From the NCBI GenBank assembly GCA_965213925.1, contig OZ243927.1, forward strand, positions 1,248,001 through 1,312,000: a DNA stretch of 64,000 nucleotides, in the 5' to 3' direction. The notes under the pieces are model-generated. The model was not told where the DNA came from and made no database searches. It saw only the letters and a program-made list of their open reading frames with translations. Position 1 is the stretch's first letter; every line of letters starts with the position of its first letter. Shown one piece after another: positions 23,577 to 46,010 of the stretch. The translations under genes were made by a program, and so were the position numbers. The stretch comes from Trueperaceae bacterium (GTDB lineage: Bacteria > Deinococcota > Deinococci > Deinococcales > Trueperaceae).

Positions 23577-24887
23577 ATGAAAGACGCGGGGCTGAAACAA
23601 TCTGAACGCAGGGCGAGGAAGCGTGCGGACATCGGTATAGCCTTCCTTGTCGCGCTTCTTCTTACCTTGACGGCGTGCGGCAGTCCGAGCGTGTCGCCGC
23701 CCCAAAGAGAACCCGAACGCTTCGACTACTCGCTCAGCGTAGATATCTCCCCCCAAACGAGCCGAGCTGAACTCGAGGCGAAGTACGGCGCTAAAATCGT
23801 CGTGTGGCGTCCCGAGGCAGGCTTCGCCGTGTTAGGTCTGCATGATACGGGCGGACTGCGCACGCAAGGCGCGAAGAAGAATGGGGATGCATTCGAAGTA
23901 CCCGAGGTTACAAAGAAAGTTACCCATGGGAACGGACATACTTCGTGGTCGGGTGGACGCAATGCCTGGAGCGGAGGTCGAAACGCCTGGAGTGGCGGGC
24001 GCGACGCTCACGGCAGCGAGCTAACAACGTTTACAAAGAACTTAGCCTATTGGGACCAAGTCAACCTACCTGAAGCGCAAGCGCTCGCGCCGAGTCTAGG
24101 CAAGGGGGTTGTGGTTGCCGTCATCGATACGGGCATCGACCTCGCCCATCCAGCTTTCGCCGATAAGCTCACCCCCGCTCACGAGTGGAAGGATTTTGTA
24201 GACGGCGACGCCCACCCGCAAGAGGTAAAAGGGACGAACTACGGGCACGGCACGGGGGTCGCTGACCTCATCCTTCAGGTCGCCCCTAACGTCACCCTCT
24301 TGCCGATTCGGGCGCTCGGTCCTGACGGCGCAGGCGATACGCTCGACGTCATCGCCGCCATTGACTACGCCGTTCAACAGGGCGCGGACATCGTCAACCT
24401 GTCGCTCGGCACGGACACCCAGGAGAAGGTGCTCAAAAAACTCGTCAAGTACGCCACGAAGCAAGAGGTACTCATCGTCGCTTCGGTAGGCAACAGCGGC
24501 GCGAAGAACATCATGTTTCCCGCTCGGTACGGCGACGAGGTGCTCAGCGTCGGCAGCGTGAACGGGCAGGACGAATTCTCGACGTTTTCAGCCTACGGCA
24601 AGGCGCTCGACCTGACAGCCCCCGGCGAGACGCTCCTCACCGCTAGCCCTGAGCGAGGCGTCATGTTTTGGAGCGGCACCTCCTTCTCCACCCCTATTGT
24701 CTCAGGCGCGGCTGCGCTAGCATTGGGCGAAAACCATCCCAAGGTGAAGGCTAAAACCCTCGGCAAAAAGCTTGCCAACACCTCTGACGATATAAGGAAC
24801 GTGGGTGGAAATGGACTTTACAAAAAGAACCACCTCGGTGAAGGGCGTCTCGATATCGAAGACTTTCTAAAGAAAGTTCTCAAGTAG
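23577..24887 (+). CDS. S8 (subtilisin-like) serine peptidase lipoprotein with WSGG repeats
   Basis: Lipobox LTAC; triad VIDTG / HGTGVA / SGTSFS; TSWSGG-RNAWSGG-RNAWSGG-RDA before the catalytic domain. Confidence 0.92.
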   Translation: MKDAGLKQSERRARKRADIGIAFLVALLLTLTACGSPSVSPPQREPERFDYSLSVDISPQTSRAELEAKYGAKIVVWRPEAGFAVLGLHDTGGLRTQGAKKNGDAFEVPEVTKKVTHGNGHTSWSGGRNAWSGGRNAWSGGRDAHGSELTTFTKNLAYWDQVNLPEAQALAPSLGKGVVVAVIDTGIDLAHPAFADKLTPAHEWKDFVDGDAHPQEVKGTNYGHGTGVADLILQVAPNVTLLPIRALGPDGAGDTLDVIAAIDYAVQQGADIVNLSLGTDTQEKVLKKLVKYATKQEVLIVASVGNSGAKNIMFPARYGDEVLSVGSVNGQDEFSTFSAYGKALDLTAPGETLLTASPERGVMFWSGTSFSTPIVSGAAALALGENHPKVKAKTLGKKLANTSDDIRNVGGNGLYKKNHLGEGRLDIEDFLKKVLK

Positions 24888-25288
24888 TGGGGTGCGCCGC
24901 CCGTTGGTGCTCTTTGAGGGGTCTGATCGTCCGCTTAGGGCGCAAACCCGAGCTAGGCATCAGGTACCTCGTCTGCTCGAGGCGGGGTTCCTGCTTCGCC
25001 ACGCAAGGTGGAAATTGCGCGCTAAGGGTGATATACTTCACATCAACATAGGTGTTGTTTAGTCCTGAGTCGCTCGAGGAAGAGGAAGCACGCTTTTACG
25101 GTGTGACTTTGGTAACAGAGGTCCCTCAAAGGTGACACCCTTTGTTTCACTCCGCCCCTACGGACTTTTAGACTGCGTAACAGCCTTCAGAAGAACGTGA
25201 TGCCAGCTTGGCCACTACGAACGTCGTGTACGAACAAATGTCAATGCAGCCTGAACACCCACCGAGACCGCGTATCTGAGGACTAACT

Positions 25289-27082
25289 ATGATGGACATG
25301 AGCGTCGAAACGTCAGCGGAGGGGCGCGAAGCGCCGTCCATCCTCCACGTTGATGAGCTTAACGCGCTCGCCTGGGAGCTGCGCCGCACCGACCCGAAGC
25401 AGTCGCGGAAACTCAGTGATGAAGCACTTCAAGGCGCGCGGGTGGTTGGCTACGCGCGGGGTCAAGCGTACAGCCAACTCGTTCTCGGCTACAGCGCGAT
25501 GCGCTCGTCTGACTTTCAAGTTGCGTTGGACAAGTTGCACGCGGCTTTAGAGTACTTTGAGCACTCAGGGGATAAAGAGGGGAGCTGTCAAGCACTCAAC
25601 ACGCTAGGCATTGTGTACGGTCAGTCTGGTAACTACCCGGACGCTCTCAAAACGTTTCTTATCTTGCAGCCCCTTTGCGCTGAATTGGGCGACCCCAAGA
25701 GTCTAGCTGACGCGATGAACAATACAGGTATTGCGTACTTTAACCTCGGGGAATACGCGAACGCGCTCGATTATTATCTGCAGGCACTTGAAACCTTCAA
25801 GACGCTGCATCATCTCAGTGGTGAGGTCGAGGCTCTCGTCAATATCGGACTGGTTTACTTTGAAAGGGGCAGCTTCGAGGAAGCGCTAGACGCCTTTTCA
25901 CAAGTTCACTTAGACGAGGTTAAAGACAGCCACACGAAAGCACTACTTCTCAACCATCTAGGCCGCACCCACTTGCAACTCGGTCACTTCGAGGAGGCGC
26001 TCGCTCACAACGAGGAAAGCTTCGCGCTTATGAACGCTTTAGGTGACCGCCTAAACGCGAGCTACGTTCAAGACGACTTCGCCGCTATCTACCTCAAACT
26101 CGCTCAGCCGGAGCAAGCCGAGCACTATCTGCACCAGAGCCTTGGGGTCAAGAGGGACGCAGGCGACACGAAGGGCGAAGCCGAGACCTGCTTGCAACTC
26201 GGGCAGCTCTACTTGCATATGGGTAGGCTCGAGCCCGCTTTAGACACGCTCCACGAAGGTCTGGCGAGCGCCCAGCGCAGCGGCGCGAAGGTCGAGGTGA
26301 AAAGAGCGCACCGCGCCCTCGCCGAAGCGTACAAAAGGAACCGGCAGTTGCGCGAAGCCTGCTTGCACTTCGAACTCCACGAGCAGCTTACAGAAGAGGT
26401 CTTTAACCGCGCGTCCGACCTGCGGCTGCAGGCGCTGCGCGTCCACTATGAGGTCGAACAGACCGAGCGTGAAAAGGAACTCTACCGCCTTAAAAACGTT
26501 GAGCTTGCGCACGCGGTCGAGGCGCTCCACGAGCTGACCGCCTCTTTGCAGGCCGCCAACGACGAGAAGGCGGTGCTCGTGGACACGCTCGAGCGGCAGT
26601 CGCGTGAAGACGCCCTGACGGGCCTCTACAACCGCCGCTACGCCGACCAGCAGCTGGAGCGGGCGTTCTCGCAGGCGCAGCGCTACAGCCGCCCGCTGAG
26701 CGTCGCGGTCTGTGACATCGACCACTTCAAGCGCGTCAACGACACCTTTTCACATCAGATGGGCGACGCGGTTTTGAAAGAGGTCGCTAGGCTCCTGCAG
26801 ACGGGTATCCGCCAGGGCGACATCGCCGCGCGGTACGGCGGCGAAGAGTTCATCTTGCTCCTACCCGAGACCGCCGCCCCGGACGCGGCGCGCATCGTCG
26901 AGCGCATCTTGGCTGAGGTGGCGCGTCATCCTTGGCACGCCCTCCACCCCGACCTCGCAATAACGATGAGCGCGGGCATCTCCGACGACCTCTCCGCCCG
27001 GAGCTACGAAGGGCTCGTCGGGCGCGCGGACATCAAGCTCTACGAGGCGAAGCACGGGGGCAGAAACCAAGCGAGAGTGTGA
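25289..27082 (+). CDS. TPR-repeat diguanylate cyclase
   Basis: Multiple TPRs (ALNTLGIVY, AMNNTGIAY), coiled-coil linker, DALTGLYNRR, DIDHFKRVND, RQGD I-site, GGEEF. Confidence 0.93.
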   Translation: MMDMSVETSAEGREAPSILHVDELNALAWELRRTDPKQSRKLSDEALQGARVVGYARGQAYSQLVLGYSAMRSSDFQVALDKLHAALEYFEHSGDKEGSCQALNTLGIVYGQSGNYPDALKTFLILQPLCAELGDPKSLADAMNNTGIAYFNLGEYANALDYYLQALETFKTLHHLSGEVEALVNIGLVYFERGSFEEALDAFSQVHLDEVKDSHTKALLLNHLGRTHLQLGHFEEALAHNEESFALMNALGDRLNASYVQDDFAAIYLKLAQPEQAEHYLHQSLGVKRDAGDTKGEAETCLQLGQLYLHMGRLEPALDTLHEGLASAQRSGAKVEVKRAHRALAEAYKRNRQLREACLHFELHEQLTEEVFNRASDLRLQALRVHYEVEQTEREKELYRLKNVELAHAVEALHELTASLQAANDEKAVLVDTLERQSREDALTGLYNRRYADQQLERAFSQAQRYSRPLSVAVCDIDHFKRVNDTFSHQMGDAVLKEVARLLQTGIRQGDIAARYGGEEFILLLPETAAPDAARIVERILAEVARHPWHALHPDLAITMSAGISDDLSARSYEGLVGRADIKLYEAKHGGRNQARV

Positions 27083-35588: not shown

Positions 35589-37082
35589 TTACGGCTTTTC
35601 ACCTAATGCGTAGCGTACTGCGTGTCGTGCGGGTTCTCGGTAGAGAGGGTAGAGGTCGCCCACGATCTCTTTCAATTTTTCGGCATCAAACCAAGCTTTA
35701 TCACCGAAACGAGCCTCGGCAGCGTCTGTCAAATAGATGCGTTTTGCACCTGGCGGCGGTGTGCCTAATCCGACGAGCGGGCTCTCTCGTGCCAGAAGTC
35801 GGCGCACGTTGCGCTCGCCGATGCGTCCATAGGAGGCGGTTTCGACTTCCAAACCGGGAATCACGACCTTAACCGCCCTGACGCCCTGCTCCCTTGCTTG
35901 GGGGGTGGCTAGCTCGAGGTACAAAATGTCAAAACCCTCTAAACGCTTGGCGACCTCTTGCAGCCGCGTTTCAGGGGTTGCGTTTGCTAAGTCGGGATGC
36001 TCCGGTAGCGTTCCGAAGGGGATACGTTCTTGTTCTTGGTAGATGGGCGTAAGCTCCGCTTTGAGTTCGGCAGGGTAGAGGTTGAGCCAGTGTTTCATGG
36101 TCTCGAGGGTTCTTTGCTCCTCGGTAACGTTCTGCGCGTGAGCGAAGTGGGCGTCTAAATAGCCTTCGGGTGAACCTTCTGCGACGTTTGCAAGAGGTCC
36201 GTGACTAAAGGCTAGACGTGCTCTCGAGAAAGCAAATTCTAAAAGCGCTTTACGGAGTGCCGCCGCACGGTCTAAGTCGCACGCCTCACCGCCCGCTGCA
36301 AGTTTAATCTGCGGCGCGTCGTCATCCGGTCCATAACCGTTCACATAGAGGTTGATAAGACCAAAGTCCCTTGCGGCGAGTTTGACGTTGACGGTGAGTC
36401 CCTCCTCTTCCAACCGCTCCAAAATCGCCTTAGTTGTATCAGGCACACCTTCCGAGAGGTCAAGTACGCGCCCTTGGTCGAGCGCCCTATAGTTCACGCT
36501 GTTGCCGTCGCGCTGCAAAAGCTCCAACGCGCCGTGGCAGAGACCTCTTGTGACGCTAAGACCTGCACCGAGACCATTGGAGACTGGGAGGAAAAGAGGT
36601 TCGTAGCCTTCGGGAAGTTCGGCGGGGCTCGAGGCGGCAGCCTCTAAGAGCACCCATTTCGACCCTTCTGGATAACGTTTCATGGAGACCCAGAAACGCA
36701 TCATATCTGCACTATAGCCACAACCCGTGTCCAGAGCGAGCGTCACGGGATTAACCACTGCGCCCGCGCCGTAAGTTACCACCAAATCGTGGTAAGAGCC
36801 TCGTTCTGTCTTTAGCTTCGGCACGACCCACAAGCTCTGCACTCGCTCGTGCAGTTCGCCGAGGGAGCCGACCTCAGCTTGGGCGTCACTAAGCCCATAG
36901 CCCGCGCCGCCGCCAAGAGGTCCGGGCAGAAAGGTGGACGCCCACGAATGAACGCCCGCCTGCTCAGCCGCGCTATCAAACCCGGTGATCAGAAAGTGAA
37001 AGAACGTGCCCTTCGGTAGTGCCGCTTTGTAGCGCTCTACGACCTCTTGGAGCGACACCTCTTGTTCTTCCTGCTGAGTCAC
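35589..37082 (-). CDS. YcaO-family protein
   Basis: SLGELHER, SNGLGAG, ALELLQRDG, KALLEFAFSR, VKVVIPGLE. Confidence 0.85.
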   Translation of the reverse strand: MTQQEEQEVSLQEVVERYKAALPKGTFFHFLITGFDSAAEQAGVHSWASTFLPGPLGGGAGYGLSDAQAEVGSLGELHERVQSLWVVPKLKTERGSYHDLVVTYGAGAVVNPVTLALDTGCGYSADMMRFWVSMKRYPEGSKWVLLEAAASSPAELPEGYEPLFLPVSNGLGAGLSVTRGLCHGALELLQRDGNSVNYRALDQGRVLDLSEGVPDTTKAILERLEEEGLTVNVKLAARDFGLINLYVNGYGPDDDAPQIKLAAGGEACDLDRAAALRKALLEFAFSRARLAFSHGPLANVAEGSPEGYLDAHFAHAQNVTEEQRTLETMKHWLNLYPAELKAELTPIYQEQERIPFGTLPEHPDLANATPETRLQEVAKRLEGFDILYLELATPQAREQGVRAVKVVIPGLEVETASYGRIGERNVRRLLARESPLVGLGTPPPGAKRIYLTDAAEARFGDKAWFDAEKLKEIVGDLYPLYREPARHAVRYALGEKP

Positions 37083-41804: not shown

Positions 41805-41836
41805 AGAAAGAGCGACTTATAAGGTCGCTCTTTTTT
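41805..41836. terminator. Bidirectional terminator between thpR and the small peptide gene
   Basis: AAAGAGCGAC-TTATAAG-GTCGCTCTTTTTT. Confidence 0.75.
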
Positions 41837-41860: not shown

Positions 41861-41989
41861 TTAACCACCCCAAGCGCTGCTTCTTCCGTCGGTCGAGGGT
41901 GACGAGCTTTGGTATTTGCCTGCGACGCTGGTGCCGAATCCGAGGCTCAAGAGGCTGACGGTGAGGGCGACGAGCATTTTCTTTTTCAT
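41861..41989 (-). CDS. 42-aa secreted peptide precursor (below the ORF-track length cutoff)
   Basis: AAGGAG RBS; MKKKMLVALTVSLLSLGFGTSVA-GKYQSSSPSTDGRSSAWGG*; terminator downstream. Confidence 0.85.
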   Translation of the reverse strand: MKKKMLVALTVSLLSLGFGTSVAGKYQSSSPSTDGRSSAWGG

Positions 41990-42046
41990 GATTCTCTCCT
42001 TTTCGCGCCGGGGTTTCTTCCCTGGTTTGCTCTTATCTTAAAGAGC

Positions 42047-42145
42047 AAAGGTTGCTAAAGGGTTGCCAAAAAGGAGGCAAAAGGTTGCTTTTTTCGCACC
42101 GTCAAAAATAAAAAAATTCACAAGTTCAGCGCATGGCAACCTTTT
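42047..42145. promoter_or_regulatory. Phased GGTTGC repeats, putative regulator-binding sites
   Basis: GGTTGC at 42050, 42061 and 42083; inverted GCAACC at 42136. Confidence 0.55.
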
Positions 42146-42262
42146 TGAACCGCACGGCCGGCGTGTGAGTTTTTTGTAAGAGGGCGTGCTCTAGGCTGAT
42201 GGGGCAGAAGTATCGGGTAGGGGGATAGCTTGAAACCAAGCCTCTGCCTCTAGGAGCGCTCT

Positions 42263-43939
42263 ATGTTCAACCGTCTTATCCTGTCAACCCCTTATACAAG
42301 GCGCGTGCTCTTGACGACTACGCTTGCGCTCTCGCTCGGCGGGTGCGGTCTCTCTCCGAGTGAGGACGCCCGTCCGCTCGGCGCTGACGTCCCCGATCCT
42401 CAGTACGCGCTCACCGTCGACCTCAGCGCCAACGATACGCTCACCGGTGTCGAAGCGGCGTATGGCGGCAAGGTGCTCGTCTGGGAGCCGGAAGCATTTG
42501 CGGTCGTAGGGGTGAACGAAAAAGTAGAGGGGCTACTCGAGACCAACGACGATGTCTTCTTGTTCGGTGGTGGGCGTGCGCGAATGGAGGGGCGTTCTTC
42601 CGCTTGGGCTGGTGGACGCTCATCCGCTTGGGCGGGCGGACGTTCTTCCGCTTGGGCTGGTGGACGCTCATCTGCTTGGGCTGGCGGGACCTACGCCTGG
42701 ATGCCTAAAAACACCTCCCTCTGGCAACAGGTTCGTCTGCAAGAAGGGCACGCGCTTGCTAGCAATTTGGGATACGGCGTCAAGGTTGCTGTTATTGATA
42801 CGGGCGTCGACCTCGAGCACCCGGCTTTAAGAGAGGCGTTAGCCCCAGAGAAAGAGTGGTGGGACTTCTATGACGGCGACGCCACGCCTCAAGAGGAGGG
42901 CGTTCTGGGCGAGGGAGGCTACGGACATGGTACCAACGTCGCGGGCATTGTCCGCCAAGTCGCGCCGCGCGCCACAATTCTTCCCATTCGCGTGCTCGGA
43001 CCTGGCGGCAGCGGCAACCTGACCGACGTCGCCTCGGCGATTCACTGGGCGGTGAAGATGAAGGCGGACGTCATCAACTTGAGTTTAGGGAGCGACGAAG
43101 AGGTCAAGGCGATCGAAGAGGTCATCGACACGGCGGTGAAAAAAGGCGTGCTCGTCGTCGCCTCGACGGGCAACACGGGCGACACGGCTGTGTCCTATCC
43201 GGCGCGCTCGGCGACGCGGGCAGAAACGGCTCCGGGGCGGCTCAGCGTGACGAGCGTCGATAACGCAGACGTCAAGTCCGACTTCGCGACGTACCGCGCT
43301 GAGGTCGAACTCTCCGCGCCCGGTGAGAACGTCTACAGTCCGGCTCCAGGGGAACGCTTGGCGGCTTGGAGCGGCACCTCGATGGCTGCGCCGATGGCGT
43401 CTGGCGCGCTCGCGCTCGCGCTCGGCGAGAAACTCAGCGTTAAGCGCAAAGAACTCGCCGAGGCGCTCAAAGCGCAAAGCTTTGACCTCTACGCCGAGGA
43501 AGATAACGCAGACTACGTCGGTCAGTTGGGCGAGGGGCGTTTAGACCTAGCTATCTTTTTAGAAGAGGTTGTCAAGCAGAAGAAGGGTAAAGGCAAAAAA
43601 GACAAAGACGAAGCAGGTCTCTCCTGCGAAGGAGGCGTAACGCGCCTGACGCTGCGCTATACGGGCTCGGATGATGAAGACATCCGCGTGGTCCAAAAGG
43701 ACGGCAAGGCGGTTCTCTTCGAGGGAGAAGTAGACCCTAATGAGACCTTCTCTTTTACGGGTGTTAAGGACGACGGCACGATGGGCAAAGAGATCACCCT
43801 TTACGAAGACGGTAAAAAGCGCGGCAAGTTGCGTACCGATTGCAAAAAACCCATCGGTCCTGGGTTGGTTGAGAAGAACTTCGAAGTGGTCTCTGGCGAG
43901 AGCTTAGGTGAACCGCTCGCCCCAGTGAGCAAAGAGTAA
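42263..43939 (+). CDS. S8 serine peptidase lipoprotein with four GRSSAWAG repeats and a C-terminal Cys-pair domain
   Basis: Lipobox LGGC; VIDTG / HGTNVAG / SGTSMA; repeats at 42590-42688. Confidence 0.92.
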   Translation: MFNRLILSTPYTRRVLLTTTLALSLGGCGLSPSEDARPLGADVPDPQYALTVDLSANDTLTGVEAAYGGKVLVWEPEAFAVVGVNEKVEGLLETNDDVFLFGGGRARMEGRSSAWAGGRSSAWAGGRSSAWAGGRSSAWAGGTYAWMPKNTSLWQQVRLQEGHALASNLGYGVKVAVIDTGVDLEHPALREALAPEKEWWDFYDGDATPQEEGVLGEGGYGHGTNVAGIVRQVAPRATILPIRVLGPGGSGNLTDVASAIHWAVKMKADVINLSLGSDEEVKAIEEVIDTAVKKGVLVVASTGNTGDTAVSYPARSATRAETAPGRLSVTSVDNADVKSDFATYRAEVELSAPGENVYSPAPGERLAAWSGTSMAAPMASGALALALGEKLSVKRKELAEALKAQSFDLYAEEDNADYVGQLGEGRLDLAIFLEEVVKQKKGKGKKDKDEAGLSCEGGVTRLTLRYTGSDDEDIRVVQKDGKAVLFEGEVDPNETFSFTGVKDDGTMGKEITLYEDGKKRGKLRTDCKKPIGPGLVEKNFEVVSGESLGEPLAPVSKE

Positions 43940-43967
43940 AAAACACCTTTTAGAAGGAGGAGAGTCT

Positions 43968-46010
43968 ATGTCCGCGCTAAGTCACAACTTTGCTGCTAGC
44001 TCTGTAACTGCGCCTGGAGCCGAAGTCGAAGAGTCGCTCGCTGACGCGGCGGCGGTGCTTGAACAGGACCCGGCGCGGACATTGGAGCTTGCTCACGGCG
44101 TACTCGGTGTATCGGCGAACCTTGCAGTGGCGGCGGAAGCCTCCTTGCTCATCGGCAAAGCGTACTATCAAAAGGGGCATTCAGCCGAAGCGCTGCGCCC
44201 ACTCCTTGAAGCCCACGCGCTGCTGACGGCTGAGGACGCGCAAGCCGCACAAAGCTCCCCGAGTGCGCTCGAGTGCGCTCTCATGCTAGGGCGTGCCCAC
44301 CGTGACCTTGCTCAGTTTGGCGACGCTGCGCGCTGGCTGGACGAAGCCTTAATATTGTCCCGAAGCATGAATAGCCCTTTGGAAGCCGAAGCTCTCAACC
44401 TCCTAGCGGGTGTAGTGGCTGAGAAAGGGGAGTACGGACGCGCGCTCGAGTATCTTAAAGACGCGCTCCCCATCGCCCAACGCCACGGCTTACGGGAGCG
44501 CCAAGCCAATATTTTCGACTACATCGGTCATATAGAATCCTTTCTCGGCAACTATCCGGGCGCTTTAGTGTCCTTGAAGCGAGCGTATGACCTGCTCCAA
44601 AGCGTCGCGCCAGGCTCGCGAAGTGCGATTGCCAACCTCATCAACTTAGGCAACCTCTACCAAGTCATGGGGCAAGACGAGCAGGCGCTCGCCTTTCTGC
44701 AGCGTGCGCGAAAGATTAGCCGCGCGGCGGAGGATACCGTTATGGAGGCGGCGGCGCTCAACAACTTAGCCAACCTCCATTACGACAGAAAGCAGTGGCG
44801 CGTAGCGCAAACTCGCTTCGAGGAGGCGCTCGAGCTTTCTCGTTACGTCAACAACCGGGCTTACGAAATCGACAACTTAGACGGTCTAGGACAGGTGCAA
44901 GTTGCACTAGGACACTTTGAGGACGCGCTCAAAACGCATAGGGCGGCGCTCTCTATCGCCAAGGATGTTGGCGATAGAGGAGGCGAGACGGACGCCCTAC
45001 TCAACTTGGGGCGGGACTACCTCGAGCTGAATCGTCCCGAACATGCGGCGCGCGCTTTAGCTGAAGGGCTCTCGCTCGCTGAGAACTTAGAACGTCTTAA
45101 ATCCGTCTACGAAGCGCACGAACTCCTCGCTAGGGCGTGTGAGGCGAACGGCGACCTGGCGAACGCGCTCTCCCACCAGCGCGAGTTTCACCGTTTGGAA
45201 AGAGCGCTTTTTAGCCGCGAGAGCGAGGAGAAGACGCGCCAGCTCACCGTGCAGTTCGAAGTCGAACGCGCCCGCCACGAAGCCGAAACGTACCGCTTGC
45301 GCACTCAGGTCGCGCAGGAGGCGCGGCGCGAAGCCGAAGCGGCCGTCGCGGAGCGCACCCTGGAACTCGAAGAGGCGCAGCTAGAGGTCGTCACGCGCCT
45401 CGCTCTGGCAGCGGAATACCGCGACGACGTCACCGGCGAGCACACGCGGCGCGTCGGCAGAAACGCCGCCGCCATCGCCTACGCTTTAGGCTGGTCCGAA
45501 GACGAGGTCAAGCTGATGTACACCGCCGCGCGGCTCCACGACGTCGGCAAGATCGGCATCAGCGACGCGGTTTTGCTCAAGCCCGATAAGCTCACCGAGG
45601 ACGAATTCGACCTCATCTGTCACCACACGGTGATCGGCGCGCGCATTTTGTCGGACGGGCGTTCGCAGCTTTTGCAGATGGCTGAAGAGATCGCCCTCGC
45701 CCATCACGAGCGCTGGAACGGGCAGGGCTACCCGTACGGGCTCGTCGGCGAGGCGATCCCCGTAACGGCCAGGATCGTCGCCGTCGCCGACGTGCTCGAC
45801 GCCCTCACGCATGAAAGGCCCTATAAAAAGGCGTGGTCCGTCGCGGAAACGCTCGCAGAGATCGAGCGGGGGAGCGGACGTCACTTCGACCCGCAGGTTG
45901 TGGCGGCGTGCTTGCGCGTCTTTGGCGAGGGTAAGCTTTCGCCCCTCGAGCCCCAAAGCCTAGCGGATACCTTGCGAAATTTATGCGAGGTGTTGGACAG
46001 GCGTTCCTGA
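43968..46010 (+). CDS. TPR-repeat HD-GYP phosphodiesterase
   Basis: TPRs (ALNNLANLH, LINLGNLY), EYRDDVTGEH, LHDVGKIG, HHERWNGQGYP, VADVLDAL. Confidence 0.93.
   Translation: MSALSHNFAASSVTAPGAEVEESLADAAAVLEQDPARTLELAHGVLGVSANLAVAAEASLLIGKAYYQKGHSAEALRPLLEAHALLTAEDAQAAQSSPSALECALMLGRAHRDLAQFGDAARWLDEALILSRSMNSPLEAEALNLLAGVVAEKGEYGRALEYLKDALPIAQRHGLRERQANIFDYIGHIESFLGNYPGALVSLKRAYDLLQSVAPGSRSAIANLINLGNLYQVMGQDEQALAFLQRARKISRAAEDTVMEAAALNNLANLHYDRKQWRVAQTRFEEALELSRYVNNRAYEIDNLDGLGQVQVALGHFEDALKTHRAALSIAKDVGDRGGETDALLNLGRDYLELNRPEHAARALAEGLSLAENLERLKSVYEAHELLARACEANGDLANALSHQREFHRLERALFSRESEEKTRQLTVQFEVERARHEAETYRLRTQVAQEARREAEAAVAERTLELEEAQLEVVTRLALAAEYRDDVTGEHTRRVGRNAAAIAYALGWSEDEVKLMYTAARLHDVGKIGISDAVLLKPDKLTEDEFDLICHHTVIGARILSDGRSQLLQMAEEIALAHHERWNGQGYPYGLVGEAIPVTARIVAVADVLDALTHERPYKKAWSVAETLAEIERGSGRHFDPQVVAACLRVFGEGKLSPLEPQSLADTLRNLCEVLDRRS

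Follow-up and report, generated by a model that had tools for sequence, protein, structure and literature searches.

The window analysed here is a 64,000-nucleotide stretch of a Trueperaceae bacterium genome (assembly GCA_965213925.1, contig OZ243927.1, positions 1,248,001 to 1,312,000 of the forward strand). Positions 41,861 to 46,010 of this window hold a candidate peptide-signalling system composed of a small peptide with predicted secretion, an S8 subtilase lipoprotein that carries nearly the same peptide in tandem, and a tetratricopeptide repeat (TPR) protein ending in an HD-GYP domain of the type that would break down cyclic di-GMP (c-di-GMP). The stand-alone peptide precursor (41861–41989, minus strand) is 42 amino acids (aa) long and ends in DGRSSAWGG*, with the predicted mature octamer GRSSAWGG (41864–41887) following an Asp residue. 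Its ribosome-binding site, AAGGAG (41993–42002, minus strand), lies 6 nt before the ATG and is conserved in the loci of relatives. The S8 gene (42263–43939, plus strand) encodes a lipobox with Cys28, a prodomain, a peptide array, a catalytic domain and a C-terminal extension, the array being four tandem copies of GRSSAWAG (42590–42685, plus strand) at the pro/mature junction. The 680-aa TPR-HD-GYP protein is encoded 28 bp downstream (43968–46010, plus strand). A first-pass annotation, made from the letters of the sequence, had described the small open reading frame (ORF) with its ribosome-binding site, the four repeats between prodomain and catalytic domain, and the TPR array with an intact HD-GYP domain; all of these were confirmed, the last by Pfam and motifs.

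The S8 subfamily is present in 167 of 364 Deinococcota genomes (four candidates were scored per genome), and close relatives with a name are from Trueperaceae, Deinococcus, Meiothermus and Calidithermus. One unpublished genome, G110, contributes to the tallies alone. The window S8 was aligned with 112 of 120 listed homologues (n=113), eight fragments or near-duplicates being left out. At least two tandem G-x4-W-x-x units occur in 112 of the 113 proteins, the G and W being fixed by the search pattern used, and all units of the array are identical in 31. The octamer G-x4-W-[AS]-G is hypervariable, with 67 different commonest units among the aligned proteins and most variability at positions 2, 4 and 5 (about 2.5 bits). 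The catalytic triad (D179, H222 and S373) is intact, D179 and S373 being invariant and H222 present in 113 of 113; the lipobox Cys28 is likewise invariant, the oxyanion residue N304 is found in 104, and W369, which we take to be the position of subtilisin residue 217, is kept in 112. The C-terminal extension gives a weak match to DUF7467, below the cut-off. In a structural model, array residues 118–142 are of low confidence (predicted local distance difference test, pLDDT, <50) and the first unit (107–114) is modelled as a strand. The best fold match is unautoprocessed IS1-inserted pro-subtilisin E (PDB 3whi). No pattern was found between unit position 5 and S8 residue 253. In one relative of the window locus (L012, from genome G001) the S8 reading frame is broken by a single extra base near codon 84, which is either an assembly error or a recent loss; array, peptide and receptor are intact there. 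Two repeat-family S8 genes lie close together at four loci (L030, L120, L369 and L071), and at L071 both have a unit and a TPR gene of their own.

The proposed receptor gives Pfam matches to TPR_12 (E 2.4e-43) and HD_5 (E 2.4e-32). The HD, HxxxG, HHE and GYP motifs and the downstream D and RPYK are all present at residues 491–620, so that by its motifs the 680-aa protein is a predicted HD-GYP phosphodiesterase. Hydropathy over 19 residues peaks at 1.68, with no strongly hydrophobic segment. The model (pLDDT 94) shows ten TPR helix pairs and a long helix (397–479) leading to the HD-GYP domain, with fold matches to LGN (Z 31.9, the best), RapI (25.3), RapH (23.2), phi105 Rap with peptide (22.3) and NprR-NprX (22.3). 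Across 72 receptors the groove carries a conserved ladder of N144 (70 of 72), N185 (69), N266 (65) and D305 (65).

The pairing of protease and TPR enzyme extends well beyond this locus. A TPR gene lies within 1.5 kb of the S8 gene in 121 of 158 S8 rows (duplicates and truncated loci counted), and adjoins it in 38 of 40 loci picked by score from the top of the S8 ranking, some of which repeat earlier loci; 37 of these carry a GGDEF or HD-GYP motif. In a hand-spread sample of 40 lower-ranked TPR loci, 22 have an S8 neighbour (three of them weak) and two have a secreted W-peptide precursor instead. The conserved core of the module is a repeat-bearing S8 and a TPR enzyme, phylum-wide. Of the 12 TPR-profile matches in the window genome, four carry a GGDEF or HD-GYP motif; these four lie beside the four repeat-bearing S8s, every one of which has a unit of its own. 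From sequence, this genome is predicted to run four channels in parallel, each with a different octamer; three would act through a cyclase and one through a phosphodiesterase. A paralogous module also lies within the window (23577–27082, plus strand), with an S8 that has GGRNAWSG units (23577–24887) and a TPR-GGDEF protein (25289–27082), and no small peptide gene was found beside it. In all, four TPR-c-di-GMP loci (L270/L360, L362, L364 and L374, two of them from genome G255 and two from the lower-ranked sample) have a W-peptide precursor and no adjacent S8. Among distant S8s, all five that were scanned (L140, L143, L146, L177 and L179), three of them from named Chloroflexota, are encoded directly behind TPR-CHAT genes of about 950 aa, and some of the S8s in such positions have a single W motif at the pro/mature junction. 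The TPR-CHAT loci possibly follow the same peptide logic with a protease output.

The stand-alone peptide gene is an optional part, often unlinked to the module. The 42-aa ORF is kept in both same-genus genomes, with 10 synonymous and 6 non-synonymous codon differences from G001, and falls into five clusters in the protein database. A hand-made score gives it a basic N-terminus and a hydrophobic core, a pattern kept in 28 aligned peptides. Pfam and NCBIfam hold no family for the peptide, and the ESM Atlas has no match at or above 0.9 for the peptide or the S8 N-terminus. Among sequencing runs, two from one sample contain this DNA and thus give no independent support, and no RNA run was listed. 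Full-length precursors were recovered with an iterated profile in at least 20 of 364 phylum genomes, all 20 of which were already in the training set, and the count is a lower bound since 19 candidates were scored per genome. An S8 is present in 19 of these 20 genomes. A three-sequence peptide profile matched the own genus alone among 128 family genomes, and wider profiles were needed; a loose filter for small secreted ORFs ending in a W motif gave 82 matches on contig C1 of the window genome and therefore provides no evidence by itself. No linked precursor gene was found at any of the 40 score-picked S8 loci, and peptide and S8 genes are unlinked in seven of 19 pairs. Two units per precursor occur in three cases (P0133, L267 and L374). 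Immediately ahead of the first Gly, the precursors mostly have D, N, Q or E and the S8s mostly N, S or A. Because the conserved core consists of S8 and TPR enzyme and the small gene is optional, most of the peptide probably comes from the protease array. The first-pass proposal of a peptide-signalling module is supported, with the small gene, which had been placed at its centre, reduced to an accessory.

Several other small ORFs with predicted secretion were seen. Locus L267 (G196:C1:2697320-2697729) has a tandem pair of precursor genes, of which one holds two units, close to transposase-like ORFs. A second class, ending in ...[FY]RVNR, is present in three copies (G000:C1:3916651-3916800, minus strand, and C1:1041783-1042202, plus strand; L255 and L256), and adjoins two HD-GYP genes whose N-terminal domain is short and not of the TPR kind, with no S8 there. 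At L273 (G193:C82:2885-3028) a secreted ORF with two GSRDYGDR copies is divergent from a 629-aa TPR gene of another type.

The first-pass annotation had made its reading depend on a conserved small ORF that co-varies with the protease repeat, and the ORF is both conserved and co-varying with the protease unit. When each peptide was compared with the best S8 unit of its own genome (19 pairs), a mean of 2.95 of the four variable positions was identical, versus 1.19 after permutation (maximum 2.21 in 20,000). The corresponding values were 2.89 versus 1.20 for nine clade representatives and 3.14 versus 2.08 (p 0.003) for the seven unlinked pairs. Identity at all four variable positions was observed in 7 of 19 pairs, unlinked ones among them. 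Three linked peptides were first spotted through their similarity to the unit and then recovered by unit-blind filters, and the unlinked peptides were found without reference to their own S8. Compared with the window locus, G001 (unit GRSNVWAG) has NV in place of SA both in the peptide and throughout its four repeats, a substitution that makes up 8 of the 24 differences counted from residue 110. Nine disjoint sister pairs were also contrasted. Peptide and S8 had changed together at 18 positions, at 13 of them to one and the same residue; the change was confined to the peptide at 7 positions and to the S8 at 2, and 27 were unchanged, with the provisos that positions are not independent and that the best paralogue was chosen for one pair. 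The match had been described as one of protein sequence only, and a comparison of codons bears this out: RSS is written AGA AGC AGC in the window peptide and CGT/CGC TCT/TCA TCC/TCT in its S8. Identical codons are used at 110 of 306 matched residues between peptide and S8, compared with 215 of 392 between repeats of one gene, and hence the match is kept at the protein level. Recent DNA copying between a repeat and the small ORF was considered and rejected on the codons.

Changes in the unit also track changes in the TPR groove. Among 29 disjoint nearest pairs, unit change correlated with change in the groove once overall divergence was accounted for (r 0.45, p 0.015; p 0.0085 against random column sets), and the corresponding value for outer-face TPR positions was r −0.26. 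The groove correlation held in eight of nine variants of the test, which reuse one data set; it peaked at TPR4-6 and TPR5-7 (r 0.63) and disappeared at TPR7-9. In the same 29 pairs, the S8 substrate cleft, at positions that we presume from subtilisin numbering, did not follow the unit (r −0.20). The same-genus loci give an example, in that G002 (70% identity) has the same unit as the window locus and the same H188/S191, whereas G001 (90%) has changed both. Since it is the TPR groove that changes with the unit, and not the S8 cleft, a ligand for the TPR protein is favoured over the alternative in the first-pass annotation, a peptide that mimics the protease pro-region.

We propose that the S8 lipoprotein, with its tandem hypervariable octamers between prodomain and catalytic domain, is exported and cuts itself at X|Gly bonds (first RME|G, later WAG|G), releasing copies of GRSSAWAG. 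From the sequences, cleavage before Gly would yield octamers that end where the stand-alone peptides end. The optional small gene would provide a freely secreted, near-identical copy, cut at D|G. The octamer would then re-enter the cell through an Opp/Dpp-type importer; the window genome encodes 13 family-5 peptide-binding proteins, none tied to the locus. Inside the cell it may bind the TPR4-7 groove of the adjacent cytoplasmic protein, a step to which co-evolution points, and binding could be relayed by the long helix to the HD-GYP domain, switching c-di-GMP breakdown, with activation as a guess at the direction. The co-evolution of array, free peptide and TPR groove makes such a peptide-TPR-c-di-GMP channel, in our judgement, the probable function of the module.

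A number of observations weigh against this channel. In 12 of the 19 peptides at least one variable position departs from the S8 unit, and the window peptide differs from its own unit at position 7. Two genomes were left out of the 19 pairs, and both count on the negative side: G255, whose peptide has a six-residue end and does not match its S8, and G196, a single-contig genome (99% complete) that has peptide genes and in which no S8 or such receptor was found by the queries used. When all pairs of 69 loci were used, a partial Mantel test gave no significant relation between groove and unit (p 0.30–0.43); the disjoint-pair test is the better controlled of the two. The TPR fold matches are generic, the best being to a eukaryotic protein, and 16 of the 40 lower-ranked TPR loci have neither S8 nor precursor nearby. 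No importer gene was noticed at the loci, in an analysis that included no search aimed at importers. Finally, all three receptors of the own genus have Tyr at groove position 185, where Asn is found in 69 of 72; this genus is also the only Trueperaceae-level clade in which a linked peptide gene was found.

The same data were weighed for other explanations. The TPR protein might read the S8-derived peptide as a private, same-cell report of protease maturation or envelope state, with the product of the stand-alone gene as a modulator, agonist or antagonist. This would suit a protease that is anchored in the membrane by an invariant Cys28, the lack of a linked peptide gene at all 40 score-picked loci, and the many stand-alone peptides that are one to three residues off the S8 unit. 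Yet 67 unit types and co-evolution with the groove resemble diversifying identity signals, and soluble precursors with predicted Sec export arose in several clades; we consider a purely private report unlikely. Slightly less credence is given to the array as a folding or autoinhibitory spacer of the IS1 kind, with the secreted peptide as a decoy substrate or inhibitor that tunes the protease and the TPR enzyme merely co-regulated. The array does sit at the insertion place of the IS1-inserted pro-subtilisin, its first unit is modelled as a strand, and an S8 accompanies the peptide in 19 of 20 genomes, but the unit is followed by the TPR groove instead of the S8 cleft, precursors occur beside TPR enzymes without S8, and there is no evident reason for a chaperone to be hypervariable yet homogenized. 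A match that stems from common ancestry or DNA copying, without functional meaning, is very improbable and already largely refuted: related units in related genomes and exact off-diagonal matches (6 of 342) speak for it, but the Ser codon families differ (AGC versus TCN), SA became NV in the peptide and all four repeats of G001, unlinked pairs match, and the disjoint-pair contrasts hold.

The proposed channel has parallels among known systems. Multi-copy pheromone precursors such as yeast prepro-alpha-factor hold tandem signal copies that are freed by a subtilase-family protease; unlike these, precursor and protease here are apparently one polypeptide and the proposed receptor is intracellular. 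IS1-inserted pro-subtilisin and thermitase-type subtilases share the prodomain-insert-catalytic order and the intact triad, whereas the insert here consists of tandem, hypervariable, homogenized octamers that co-vary with a separate gene and a neighbouring TPR groove. The RRNPP(A) systems of Firmicutes (Rap/Phr, NprR/NprX, PlcR/PapR and AimR/AimP) likewise have a small propeptide with a C-terminal candidate ligand and a cytoplasmic TPR protein, with which the present model aligns (RapI, RapH, phi105 Rap and NprR). They differ in that the output here is HD-GYP, GGDEF or EAL, the host is from Deinococcota, and most of the ligand would come from an array within a dedicated subtilase, with a stand-alone gene that is optional and often unlinked. 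PMC10075063 defines RRNPP systems by a Sec-secreted propeptide of 10–100 aa and a receptor of 250–500 aa with TPRs, encoded directly adjacent, and does not mention Deinococc-, GGDEF or HD-GYP. The propeptide here has 42 aa and, by its basic N-terminus and hydrophobic core, is a candidate for Sec export, and the receptor has TPRs (TPR_12, ten helix pairs), but the receptor, with its C-terminal HD-GYP domain, is 680 aa long and the S8 gene intervenes, precursor and receptor genes being adjacent at few loci (for example, L270 and L364). With two of these five properties lacking, the module is not an RRNPP member as defined there, though it would work alike. The main text of an HD-GYP survey (10.1101/2021.11.05.467447) makes no mention of TPR, Deinococc- or protease. 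Literature searches, which largely excluded subscription journals and did not cover supplements, returned other systems or general RRNPP work and no description of the module, which is thus undescribed as far as searched.

The locus has several further elements. A 10-bp perfect hairpin (41807–41833) lies in the gap between the peptide gene and a convergent 2'-5' RNA ligase-family gene and is a probable shared terminator; a similar hairpin is present in G001 and G002, and a consensus scan for terminators did not list it. It had been taken for the peptide gene's own terminator; the hairpin exists, but its T-run is on the plus strand, which makes it a shared or bidirectional terminator at best for a minus-strand gene. 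The divergent intergenic region contains three direct and one inverted AA[AG]GGTTGC elements (42047–42144), which are kept in three genomes, form the sole such cluster on contig C1 of the window genome, and, judged from sequence, probably serve as regulator sites for the peptide promoter. A scan of the locus gave no sigma-70 promoter. The same AAAGGTTGC element also precedes a paralogous peptide gene (L274; G002:C8, about 773832), which ends in ...DGPRFTR and lies near a GGDEF-like gene. Elsewhere in the window, a 497-aa ORF (35589–37082, minus strand), presumably YcaO-like by its motif, ends a sugar ABC-transporter operon.

We consider it an even question whether the module represents an unrecognized class of cell-cell communication, in which a maturation protease is also a multi-copy pheromone precursor, Deinococcota run several orthogonal channels, each linking one type of octamer to a phosphodiesterase or a cyclase, and additional stand-alone genes let some lineages broadcast, amplify or jam a channel; the logic of S8 plus TPR may extend to the TPR-CHAT proteins of Chloroflexota. 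If the proposed channel is true, many orphan TPR-GGDEF, TPR-HD-GYP and TPR-EAL proteins would have a predicted ligand that can be read from the sequence of the neighbouring protease, and protease and signal in one polypeptide would be a new precursor design. The channel is open to tests with synthetic peptides, since nature offers dozens of octamer-receptor pairs, many of them in cultured Deinococcus species, and such pairs could yield orthogonal peptide-controlled c-di-GMP switches. For the Deinococcota themselves, it would mean that peptide communication is coupled straight to c-di-GMP.

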